Assembly (NCBI RefSeq): GCF_000195955.2
Contig: NC_000962.3
Coordinates: 3,180,001 to 3,212,000, forward strand
Source: Mycobacterium tuberculosis H37Rv
GTDB taxonomy: Bacteria > Actinomycetota > Actinomycetes > Mycobacteriales > Mycobacteriaceae
Reading direction: 5' to 3'
Length of the DNA: 32,000 bases
Positions within the stretch are counted from its first letter, which is position 1. The number at the start of each line of letters is the position of its first letter. Shown piece after piece: positions 3,001 through 6,000 of this stretch. A program made the position numbers.

Positions 3001-6000
3001 GAGTTGGTCACCTCATCATTGTGCGCCACCACCTCGTTGTCACCGCGCCGCCGGATCACGACGCGTCCACCGGTAGCCACACTTCCCCGTGGAATGCAAT
3101 CGTCTTGATGCCTGCGCTTGATGCTAAGATGCCATGCGTGCGCACGACGATCCGTATCGATGACGAGCTGTACCGCGAGGTGAAAGCAAAGGCCGCTCGT
3201 TCCGGGCGTACCGTGGCCGCGGTTCTTGAAGATGCGGTGCGGCGTGGTCTCAACCCGCCTAAGCCGCAGGCCGCCGGCCGTTATCGAGTCCAGCCGTCGG
3301 GTAAGGGCGGCCTGCGGCCCGGTGTCGATCTATCGTCCAACGCCGCACTTGCCGAAGCGATGAACGACGGCGTGTCGGTCGATGCTGTGCGTTGATGTCA
3401 ACGTGCTCGTTTACGCGCATCGGGCAGACCTACGGGAGCACGCGGACTATCGGGGTTTGCTTGAGCGGCTGGCCAACGATGACGAGCCGCTGGGTCTACC
3501 AGATAGCGTGCTCGCCGGCTTCATCCGGGTGGTTACCAACCGCCGCGTCTTCACCGAGCCGACGAGCCCACAGGACGCATGGCAGGCAGTCGACGCCCTA
3601 CTCGCGGCACCCGCAGCCATGCGACTTCGGCCTGGCGAGCGCCACTGGATGGCCTTTCGGCAGTTAGCGTCCGATGTTGATGCGAACGGCAACGACATTG
3701 CGGACGCGCACCTGGCCGCCTACGCGCTAGAGAACAACGCAACCTGGTTGAGCGCCGACCGCGGCTTTGCCCGTTTCCGTCGACTGCGCTGGCGTCATCC
3801 GTTGGACGGTCAGACCCATCTATAACCGGCCCCACTCCGAATCACTGGTGTCCACCCAGGAGGACGGCGTTCAACGCCGCCGCAGAAGCAAAGGAATCGA
3901 AGCGATGATCAACGTTCAGGCCAAACCGGCCGCAGCAGCGAGCCTCGCAGCCATCGCGATTGCGTTCTTAGCGGGTTGTTCGAGCACCAAACCCGTGTCG
4001 CAAGACACCAGCCCGAAACCGGCGACCAGCCCGGCGGCGCCCGTTACCACGGCGGCAATGGCTGACCCCGCAGCGGACCTGATTGGTCGTGGGTGCGCGC
4101 AATACGCGGCGCAAAATCCCACCGGTCCCGGATCGGTGGCCGGAATGGCGCAAGACCCGGTCGCTACCGCGGCTTCCAACAACCCGATGCTCAGTACCCT
4201 GACCTCGGCTCTGTCGGGCAAGCTGAACCCGGATGTGAATCTGGTCGACACCCTCAACGGCGGCGAGTACACCGTTTTCGCCCCCACCAACGCCGCATTC
4301 GACAAGCTGCCGGCGGCCACTATCGATCAACTCAAGACTGACGCCAAGCTGCTCAGCAGCATCCTGACCTACCACGTGATAGCCGGCCAGGCGAGTCCGA
4401 GCAGGATCGACGGCACCCATCAGACCCTGCAAGGTGCCGACCTGACGGTGATAGGCGCCCGCGACGACCTCATGGTCAACAACGCCGGTTTGGTATGTGG
4501 CGGAGTTCACACCGCCAACGCGACGGTGTACATGATCGATACGGTGCTGATGCCCCCGGCACAGTAACGTTCGGCGCGGTCAAGGCGAGGCAGCCCGTGT
4601 AGGCGGTTTGCCTCGCTCATCCGGCGGCTTCGTGCCGATAGATCACGTGATATCCCAAGCGCATGACGGTGACACCGCGCCCAGCGCAAGCCGATCCCCG
4701 CAGCATGCCTGCTGAAGTCGCGTCTCGCGAACTGCGCAACAACACCGCCGGGCTGCTACGGCGCGTGCAGGCCGGCGAAGACATCACCATCACTGCCAAC
4801 GGCAAACCCGTTGCGCTGCTGACCGCAGGCAGCCCGCACGGCGCCGATGGTTGAGTCGAGACGAGCTGCTGCGGCGGCTTCGGCATACGCAAGCAGATGC
4901 GGGATTGCACCCGCGACCTCGCAACGCTCACTGGCGACACCACCGACGATCTCGGTCCCGTCCGGTGAGGGCCGCTGCCGTTGCCACGTCGCAAGGGGTG
5001 CCGGTCGTGACCCACGACGGCGACTTCGACGCCGTCGATGGTGTGGCCGATGTGGCTATCATTCGCATCTGACGGGTGGCGAGTTCGACGTGAACCGACT
5101 CTGTCAACAGCGCTCGCGTGAGCGGTCCTGCCAACTCGTTGCCGTCCCGGCAGATCCAAGACCTAAACGGCAACGAATAACCGATGTGTTGACCCTCGCA
5201 CTAGTCGGCTTCCTCGGCGGCCTCATCACCGGAATATCACCATGCATTCTGCCGGTCCTGCCAGTAATCTTCTTCTCCGGCGCGCAGAGCGTCGATGCAG
5301 CGCAGGTGGCGAAACCCGAAGGCGCCGTAGCAGTCCGGCGCAAACGTGCGCTATCAGCGACATTGCGGCCCTACCGGGTGATCGGTGGTCTGGTGCTCAG
5401 TTTCGGCATGGTCACCCTGCTCGGCTCGGCATTGCTGTCAGTGCTGCATCTACCGCAGGACGCCATCCGCTGGGCCGCACTGGTCGCCTTGGTGGCAATC
5501 GGCGCCGGCCTCATTTTCCCGCGGTTTGAACAACTTCTGGAAAAACCGTTCTCCCGTATTCCGCAGAAGCAAATCGTCACTCGCAGCAACGGTTTCGGGC
5601 TGGGTCTAGCCCTGGGCGTGTTGTATGTCCCCTGCGCCGGCCCGATTCTAGCTGCGATCGTCGTGGCCGGGGCTACTGCCACCATCGGGTTGGGAACCGT
5701 CGTGCTCACCGCGACATTCGCACTCGGAGCCGCGTTGCCGTTGTTGTTCTTCGCCCTCGCCGGCCAACGGATAGCTGAGCGGGTGGGCGCTTTTCGGCGC
5801 CGCCAGCGTGAGATCAGGATCGCCACCGGTTCCGTGACGATCCTGCTGGCGGTGGCGTTGGTGTTCGATCTGCCGGCCGCGCTGCAGCGGGCTATTCCTG
5901 ACTACACCGCATCGCTGCAGCAGCAGATCAGCACCGGCACGGAGATACGGGAACAACTGAACCTTGGCGGCATCGTCAACGCCCAGAACGCACAGCTGTC

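Follow-up and report, generated by a model that had tools for sequence, protein, structure and literature searches.

What lies between mpt83 and dipZ (Rv2874) in Mycobacterium tuberculosis H37Rv, and at which codon does DipZ begin? The H37Rv reference annotation and UniProt keep a DipZ of 695 amino acids (aa), which some assemblies also still call; NCBI automatic annotation instead gives a 582-aa DipZ, together with a 63-aa truncated antitoxin, in most genomes of the M. tuberculosis complex. We examined these questions in a 32,000-nucleotide (nt) stretch of the H37Rv chromosome (NC_000962.3, positions 3,180,001 to 3,212,000, forward strand), called the window below; adding 3,180,000 to a window coordinate gives the H37Rv coordinate. 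An initial annotation of the window had proposed that a decayed Phd/YefM-VapC toxin-antitoxin pair lies hidden under the annotated 5' end of dipZ. Our analysis supports a reading in which such a pair was inserted here and died and in which the reference start of dipZ is misplaced, and we give this reading a probability of about 0.88. The coordinates of all features are collected in Table 1.

Homology in both of its genes identifies window positions 4706 to 5072 as a decayed Phd/YefM-VapC toxin-antitoxin module. The antitoxin can be read only by splicing segments from different frames, and a three-frame translation of positions 4560 to 5260 returned, at the same coordinates, every protein string quoted in the initial annotation, which had described a complete antitoxin distributed over three frames. 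When used as a query, the spliced product (83 aa) matched 802 proteins, the best with an E of 8e-34 and with 84 to 85% identity over 96 to 98% of its length; nearly all were mycobacterial Phd/YefM antitoxins of 86 aa, some of them called as 92 aa. On the antitoxin, the TIGR01552 and Pfam PF02604 (PhdYeFM_antitox) profiles reached 42 to 45.8 bits (cut-off, 20.8) and 30.3 to 31.4 bits (cut-off, 29.8), and the N-terminus alone exceeded both curated cut-offs, with 42 and 30.3 bits, respectively. DNA alignments to intact homologues placed the two compensating frameshifts, expected near 4830 and 4910, at 4827/4828 and at about 4909 to 4911. They lie 82 nt apart, the -1 shift preceding the +1 shift. 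An additional in-frame insertion of 3 nt follows ATG 4706 in the nucleotide alignment with intact modules. Past the first segment, the native frame continues into a novel 9-residue tail, AGSPHGADG, and ends at the TGA at 4852 to 4854. The sequence therefore has the N-terminal profile match of a Phd/YefM antitoxin and its coupling to a downstream toxin gene, but the single open reading frame (ORF) of about 86 aa, including the C-terminal toxin-binding half, is broken by the two shifts and the stop. It is best classed as a pseudogene of the family and not as a functional member. A promoter and terminator scan also returned a weak terminator-like site on the minus strand inside the antitoxin, which we judged to be due to chance.

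The toxin gene follows immediately. The antitoxin TGA (4966 to 4968) overlaps the toxin GTG (4965) as GTGA, the same 4-nt overlap being present in intact modules, and this junction, as well as the 35-aa ORF that it opens, was confirmed as initially described, the stop codon occupying positions 5070 to 5072. The suggestion that this ORF corresponds only to the C-terminal end of a PIN toxin also held: 24 of 32 residues (75%) are identical to residues 101 to 132 of the M. shinjukuense partner toxin (pairwise E, 3e-15), and residues 4 to 100 of the 132-aa homologues are missing. In DNA alignments to intact homologues, the loss appeared as a single in-frame gap of 291 nt. An in-frame deletion of the toxin core had thus been correctly proposed, its size being 97 codons and not about 95. 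Nucleotide identity of the remnant was 72 to 78% to three of the five intact homologues and 63 to 64% to those of M. lacus and M. riyadhense. With the PIN profile (PF01850), the match was restricted to model positions 97 to 119 of 120 and reached 14.3 bits (cut-off, 23.6), and the NCBIfam VapC profile scored 13 bits against 80. The active site of PIN nucleases is built from four conserved acidic residues distributed over the domain. Three of these positions fall in the deleted part, and the remaining one is the C-terminal D of the DGDFD region. The remnant hence lacks both the full domain and the acidic tetrad of a VapC/PIN toxin and retains a specific homology to the cognate toxins.

The deletion junction maps to about 4971 to 4979, within a GCSGCSG (Ala-Ala) microhomology. 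Since intact homologues carry GCSGCSG both near codons 3 and 4 and near codons 101 and 102, the deletion was probably microhomology mediated, occurring between these two short repeats. We also considered a junction after toxin codon 10 (ACG TCG) combined with an extra loss of one codon, one intact homologue having A-T-S in its C-terminal region, and rejected it in favor of the simpler single 97-codon deletion near codons 3 and 4. Separately, a 13-nt direct repeat, GGCGA(C/G)TTCGACG, occurs at 5019 to 5031, in the GDFD codons of the remnant, and at 5078 to 5090, just past its stop; it may be due to chance or to a small duplication.

Intact modules, consisting of an 86-aa antitoxin followed by a 132-aa PIN toxin with a 4-nt overlap, were found in M. 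shinjukuense, M. lacus, M. riyadhense and three metagenomic contigs. The genomic context of every intact homologue examined differs from mpt83-dipZ, as expected of mobile toxin-antitoxin cassettes. In M. lacus, two Phd-PIN modules lie in tandem (locus L005, 5292 to 5947 and 6001 to 6656) beside a cutinase gene and a PE-PGRS gene, the second module being the homologue of the relic. A multiple alignment showed that five intact modules share the box GGCTACA..TGCTAC-N4-GTAGC directly before the antitoxin ATG, likely representing an operator together with the -10 element of a leaderless antitoxin mRNA. The window has GCGCAAGCCGATCCCCGCAGC in its place, with both half-sites and the TACnnT hexamer lost, suggesting that the promoter and operator of the relic are gone. 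In addition, a consensus scan of 4450 to 5300 detected no sigma-70-like promoter, leaving the relic with no recognizable site for the autoregulation expected of the family.

These observations bear on whether the truncated antitoxin, of 49 to 63 aa, could still be expressed as an orphan DNA-binding protein or as a decoy, for example, one that cross-regulates paralogous Phd-VapC operons. Its N-terminal domain is intact, passing the TIGR01552 and Pfam cut-offs by itself, and NCBI annotates the protein in thousands of genomes. We nevertheless consider its expression unlikely. Besides the degraded box and -10 element and the missing sigma-70-like site, the toxin-binding C-terminal half is out of frame, the death of the cognate toxin leaves no addiction selection, and the conservation of the ORF is explained by the clonality of the complex. 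No transcription start at 31846xx to 31847xx is given in the supplement tables of Cortes 2013, Shell 2015 and Smith 2022, an absence that is by itself uninformative. A broader proposal is that the insertion is not inert, either because the 63-aa Phd fragment is made and acts on paralogous VapBC operons, as an orphan regulator that binds DNA or as a decoy, or because the 500-bp relic altered the transcriptional coupling of mpt83 and dipZ-mpt70 in the M. tuberculosis complex. We regard this as quite improbable; were the coupling indeed altered, the relic would contribute to the unusual regulation of SigK-dependent antigens in the complex.

Comparison with homologues indicates that DipZ most likely consists of 582 aa and starts at GTG 5186. 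The 695-aa ORF (4847 to 6934) corresponds exactly to CCP45676.1 and to UniProt DIPZ_MYCTU, and GTG 5186 encodes its residue 114. Along this ORF, the Pfam DsbD_TM match starts at residue 116, at model position 2, the whole domain set being CcdA/DsbD_TM, a thioredoxin-like domain and Thioredoxin_10. The 582-aa form hence begins at the first CcdA-type transmembrane helix, as is typical of the DipZ family and as the initial annotation had anticipated, and the 113 extra residues do not fit the family pattern. The 120 DipZ homologues listed cover just 71 to 87% of the 695-aa query, and none of them spans the extension; their lengths range from 557 to 608 aa, apart from a fused call of 777 aa and truncated M. 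tuberculosis fragments of 492 and 525 aa. The homologue cluster holding M. tuberculosis DipZ has a 582-aa representative.

We extended this comparison to further species. The nearest named relatives were M. decipiens, M. shinjukuense and M. riyadhense (DipZ identity of 86, 79 and 73%, respectively), and a scan of one genome per species added 80 dipZ loci, bringing the total to 83 loci from other species and 84 with the window. In the alignments, GTG 5186 fell exactly on the start codon of the orthologues, ATG or GTG, the codon at this position being ATG in 74 and GTG in 9 of the 84 loci, and tblastn matches started at DipZ residue 1 to 3 in 74 of the 83 other loci. A minor discrepancy was seen in M. 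riyadhense (locus L012, 5001 to 5012), in which the annotated dipZ ATG at 5001 lies 9 nt upstream of an ATG at 5010. The latter agrees with the tblastn alignment as well as with the 7-nt promoter spacing described below, and the annotated ATG is probably another small start-site error.

The sequence of the supposed extension also contains a conserved promoter motif. A search of the window for ATCY-N16-CGAAK gave exactly three matches, where 0.55 would be expected by chance; all are on the plus strand, before mpt83, before GTG 5186 and before mpt70. A statement in PMC9861118, citing Veyrier 2008, assigns a SigK-dependent promoter to each of these three genes. At mpt70, Shell 2015 placed the transcription start at 3186973 (window G6973), exactly 7 nt downstream of the -10 element CCGAAG. 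Among the 84 dipZ loci, 64 carry NNATC[CT]-N15-CGAA[TG] placed so that exactly 7 nt separate it from the start codon, and several of the remaining ones have GTCC variants at the same place. Because the 7-nt distance from -10 to start codon is conserved at dipZ and the mpt70 start was mapped 7 nt after its own -10, we predict that the dipZ mRNA is leaderless throughout the genus, starting at the first base of the start codon. Such an mRNA could not encode the extension. As a side observation, a perfect 10-nt inverted repeat (5136 to 5145, TCGTTGCCGT; 5167 to 5176, ACGGCAACGA) brackets the dipZ -35 element and overlaps the -10 element. It might be a regulatory hairpin, a binding site or a mere reflection of the -10 element, and TTCGT-like sequences occur upstream in other species.

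The 113-residue extension of H37Rv DipZ is thus almost certainly not part of the protein. It reads the relic in the third frame, as had been proposed, and its G+C content at third codon positions (GC3) is 54.9%, compared to 75.9% for the DipZ core (z, -5.2). The GC3 of the toxin-remnant frame is 77.1%, so that the earlier hand counts of about 55% for the extension and about 77% for this frame were accurate. The extension contains no hydrophobic segment, its net charge is about +16, and profile searches returned no family match for it. Sequence inspection revealed no Shine-Dalgarno-like sequence 5 to 10 nt before ATG 4847. Its being open is unremarkable, since at least 113 stop-free codons follow 22% of the codon positions in the six frames of the window. 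In one deposited M. tuberculosis isolate (UDR65812.1, 136 aa), an A inserted after 4851 joins the 63-aa ORF to one of 73 aa whose 3' end is the toxin remnant. The long dipZ ORF thereby acquires a stop at its third codon, while the 582-aa ORF is unaffected. This variant is compatible with a dispensable extension and may be a sequencing error. Membrane topology, on the other hand, was dropped as an argument against the extension, since the CcdA core plausibly has a cytoplasmic N-terminus, in line with a hydropathy scan.

Could the 695-aa DipZ nonetheless be real? In that case, a different reading frame of the relic would have been exapted as a cytoplasmic, Arg/Cys-rich N-terminal domain specific to the lineage, with translation beginning at ATG 4847 of a read-through transcript from mpt83. 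The frame is open from 4847 into dipZ, and the long form stands in the reference annotation and in UniProt and is called in some assemblies. We find this very improbable given the low GC3, the lack of a family match or of any homologue covering the extension, the conserved promoter within it and the conserved start codon at its end, the missing Shine-Dalgarno-like sequence, the frequency of open stretches of this length and the isolate with a stop at codon 3.

The preferred reading, an inserted and dead module next to a 582-aa DipZ, also holds that the sequence between mpt83 and dipZ is foreign to the locus. The initial annotation had suggested aligning the orthologous interval of other mycobacteria and finding an intact copy. 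The interval could be aligned, and the insertion was absent from all loci examined; no intact copy was present between mpt83 and dipZ, the intact modules occurring in other contexts. In M. decipiens, M. shinjukuense and M. riyadhense, the mpt83-dipZ spacer measures only 92 to 130 bp. An mpt83-like gene precedes dipZ in 71 of the 83 other loci, with a gap of 12 to 172 nt, compared to 618 to 621 nt in the window. Both flanks are conserved. On the left, the terminator-like hairpin after the mpt83 stop aligns with the post-mpt83 hairpin of M. shinjukuense and M. decipiens (RNA fold of 4566 to 4640, -37.8 kcal/mol; z, -2.6); on the right, about 55 bp before dipZ align with the loci of M. decipiens, M. 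shinjukuense and M. riyadhense. The edges of the insertion are approximate, the left one lying between 4617 and 4640 and the right one between 5085 and 5130. None of the 83 other mycobacterial loci had an antitoxin or toxin homologue within 3 kb of dipZ, whereas the window has both. The short spacers, the conserved flanks and the lack of any toxin-antitoxin trace elsewhere make it most parsimonious that the module entered the locus on the branch leading to the M. tuberculosis complex and decayed afterwards. No target-site duplication was seen flanking the insertion, a distant blastn search of 4600 to 5140 against 72,556 plasmids gave no match, and no Rfam RNA element was detected in 4300 to 5400 at an E of ≤1.

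The same comparison makes it extremely improbable that the relic was an original part of the mpt83-dipZ locus, deleted cleanly in the other mycobacteria. Toxin-antitoxin modules are often lost, and nothing more specific speaks for such a history; it would need many independent and precise deletions to account for conserved flanks with no toxin-antitoxin trace and for a 12- to 172-nt spacer in 71 of 71 other loci with an mpt83-like neighbor, including M. decipiens, M. shinjukuense and distant Mycolicibacterium. An origin of the frameshifts in faulty sequencing or assembly, or of the resemblance in chance alignment, has no point in its favor and can be dismissed, given E values of 8e-34 (antitoxin) and 3e-15 (toxin remnant) and the identical 63-aa product on at least 1,000 independent contigs.

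Several points weigh against our interpretation. For the timing of insertion and decay, M. decipiens supplies the only bound. An mpt83 read-through transcript could in principle allow initiation at ATG 4847, and, given the clonality of the M. tuberculosis complex, conservation of the long ORF is uninformative in either direction. The SigK regulon is weakly expressed in vitro. The three sets of supplement tables (Cortes 2013, Shell 2015 and Smith 2022) contain no start at 3184847 or at 3185186, listing for the dipZ region only the internal dipZ starts 3186264 and 3186686 and the mpt70 start 3186973, and this absence is uninformative. Finally, the SigK consensus was derived from the three-fold motif of the window and from the 84 loci, and its assignment to SigK leans on the secondary citation in PMC9861118.

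Taken together, the data are best explained by the following history. A type II module, made of an 86-aa Phd/YefM antitoxin and a coupled 132-aa VapC/PIN toxin, entered the stretch bounded by the mpt83 terminator hairpin and the dipZ promoter. A single in-frame deletion, probably between the GCSGCSG repeats, removed 97 of the 132 toxin codons; the antitoxin gained a -1 and then a +1 frameshift, and the palindromic box before its start degraded. The relic is left with no toxin-antitoxin function, its native frame being translatable at most into a 49- to 63-aa N-terminal antitoxin fragment. The GC-rich third frame by chance stayed open from ATG 4847 into dipZ, and the original H37Rv annotation chose that ATG, arriving at 695 aa. 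In this history, the homology, the indels, the insertion and the conservation of both start codon and promoter motif are direct observations, and the direction and mechanism of the deletion, the loss of the relic's promoter, the leaderless start and the untranslated state of the extension are inferences. The real DipZ would be transcribed from the conserved SigK-type promoter, the -10 element of which ends 7 nt before GTG 5186.

Part of this picture is already recognized by automatic annotation, which calls the 63-aa antitoxin and the 582-aa DipZ. The relic does lie under the annotated start of dipZ, as first claimed, but it is less hidden than that description implied. The exact 582-aa DipZ occurs on at least 851 contigs and in RefSeq WP_ records, compared to 13 contigs for the 695-aa form. 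The exact 63-aa ORF occurs on at least 1,000 contigs and in 10,790 index blocks, with records of BCG and M. microti among them, and the identity of this frameshifted product across thousands of assemblies of the complex argues that no assembly error is involved. The toxin-remnant frame is labeled only as a hypothetical protein, in few records. A literature search, conducted largely without subscription journals, found no publication on the relic, on its double frameshift or toxin deletion, or on the question of the dipZ start.

If our reading is correct, the H37Rv gene model and the reviewed UniProt entry of DipZ carry 113 surplus residues. The 582-aa form should then be used for expression constructs, topology and structure prediction, proteomics databases and the annotation of variants at codons 1 to 113, and single-nucleotide polymorphisms and indels in 3184847 to 3185185 would not be dipZ coding variants. 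The conserved promoter-to-start geometry predicts that dipZ is leaderless and SigK dependent across mycobacteria. The M. tuberculosis genome is known for its expansion of toxin-antitoxin systems, and one fully decayed Phd-VapC pair is now added to its inventory; the relic, seen only in the M. tuberculosis complex, illustrates turnover, with gain followed by decay. As an ordinary pseudogene accompanied by a start-codon error, it has practical value for annotation and little conceptual surprise, and the understanding of toxin-antitoxin systems or of DipZ is unchanged.

Table 1. Features of the mpt83-dipZ region in window coordinates
Feature	Position	Strand	Description
vapC43-like PIN gene	3382-3825	+	5'-most in the local gene order
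ATCY-N16-CGAAK match	3818-3842	+	Before mpt83
mpt83	ATG 3905, stop 4565-4567	+	After the vapC43-like gene
Terminator-like hairpin	4585-4616	+	After the mpt83 stop; inverted repeat with 13-nt arms; left edge of the sequence common to other species
Insertion relative to other mycobacteria	4617-5130		About 470-510 bp; relic plus short flanks of unknown origin; from pairwise locus alignments
63-aa ORF	4663-4854	+	Truncated product of the relic in the native frame, from an ATG upstream of 4706; annotated by NCBI as 'type II toxin-antitoxin system Phd/YefM (prevent-host-death) family antitoxin'
Degraded upstream box	4680-4705	+	Remnant of the box of intact modules; alignment with five intact modules
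Antitoxin segment 1	4706-4827	+	Codons 1 to about 41 from ATG 4706; N-terminal Phd/YefM domain (PF02604, TIGR01552); native frame (pos%3=1)
Frameshift 1	4827-4828	+	1-nt deletion (-1); DNA alignment to intact homologues
Antitoxin segment 2	4830-4907	+	26 residues, readable only in the shifted frame (pos%3=0)
N-terminal extension of the 695-aa dipZ ORF, almost certainly spurious	4847-5185	+	113 codons; third frame over the relic and the dipZ promoter
Frameshift 2	about 4909-4911	+	1-nt insertion (+1) restoring the native frame; DNA alignment to intact homologues
Antitoxin segment 3	4912-4968	+	18 residues, native frame (pos%3=1); TGA stop 4966-4968
VapC/PIN toxin remnant	4965-5072	+	35 codons: GTG start, 2-3 N-terminal codons and the last 32 codons; stop 5070-5072
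dipZ SigK-type promoter	5152-5178	+	-35 AGATCC 5152-5157, 15-nt spacer, -10 ACGAAT 5173-5178, 7 nt to GTG 5186
ATCY-N16-CGAAK match	5154-5178	+	Before GTG 5186 of dipZ
dipZ, most likely form	5186-6934	+	GTG start, 582 aa, probably leaderless mRNA
ATCY-N16-CGAAK match	6941-6965	+	Before mpt70
mpt70	ATG 7030	+	Downstream of dipZ

On the plus strand, the order of genes is vapC43-like PIN gene, mpt83, relic interval, dipZ and mpt70, the end of vapBC43 at 3183825 corresponding to window position 3825. The vapBC43 genes (an RHH-PIN pair, 3138 to 3825) are also found in M. decipiens (locus L010, 3412 to 4087) and are missing at the same place in M. shinjukuense and M. riyadhense. This distribution suggests that mpt83 is flanked in M. 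tuberculosis by two independent toxin-antitoxin insertions, namely, vapBC43, common to M. decipiens, and the relic. The longest ORF over mpt83 (266 aa, from TTG 3767, spanning 3767 to 4567) overlaps the end of vapC43 and includes the mpt83 promoter motif. By homology, mpt83 starts at ATG 3905 (220 aa), making this a second example of a longest ORF that overstates the gene. Near the end of dipZ, a run of six T residues lies at 6912 to 6917. In a variant with one additional T, seen on four contigs assembled from public sequencing runs, DipZ continues in frame into an upstream-extended MPT70 frame, giving an 808-aa protein.

Compared to the mycobacterial Phd/YefM-VapC (VapBC-type) modules defined by PF02604/TIGR01552 and PF01850, such as the one next to secG in M. 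shinjukuense (locus L002, 6001 to 6656) and those of M. lacus and M. riyadhense, the relic has the same gene order, the same 4-nt GTGA overlap and a remnant of the upstream box. Its spliced antitoxin is 74 to 85% identical to theirs, and its toxin C-terminus is 75% identical. Unlike them, it has two antitoxin frameshifts, has lost 97 of 132 toxin codons together with three of the four catalytic acidic positions and shows a degraded palindrome and -10 element, and it occupies another genomic location. The DipZ/CcdA-thioredoxin fusions orthologous to Rv2874 (575 to 590 aa) are collinear with DipZ from GTG 5186 onward, with 69 to 86% identity, and share with dipZ the start position and the promoter motif 7 nt upstream, whereas the 113 additional N-terminal residues are peculiar to the H37Rv reference and UniProt model, in which the relic is read in the third frame. 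Within the SigK-dependent mpt83-dipZ-mpt70 triad, the same motif stands upstream of all three genes, but the leaders of mpt83 and mpt70 are about 55 nt long, while in dipZ the start codon itself is predicted to occupy the +1 position.

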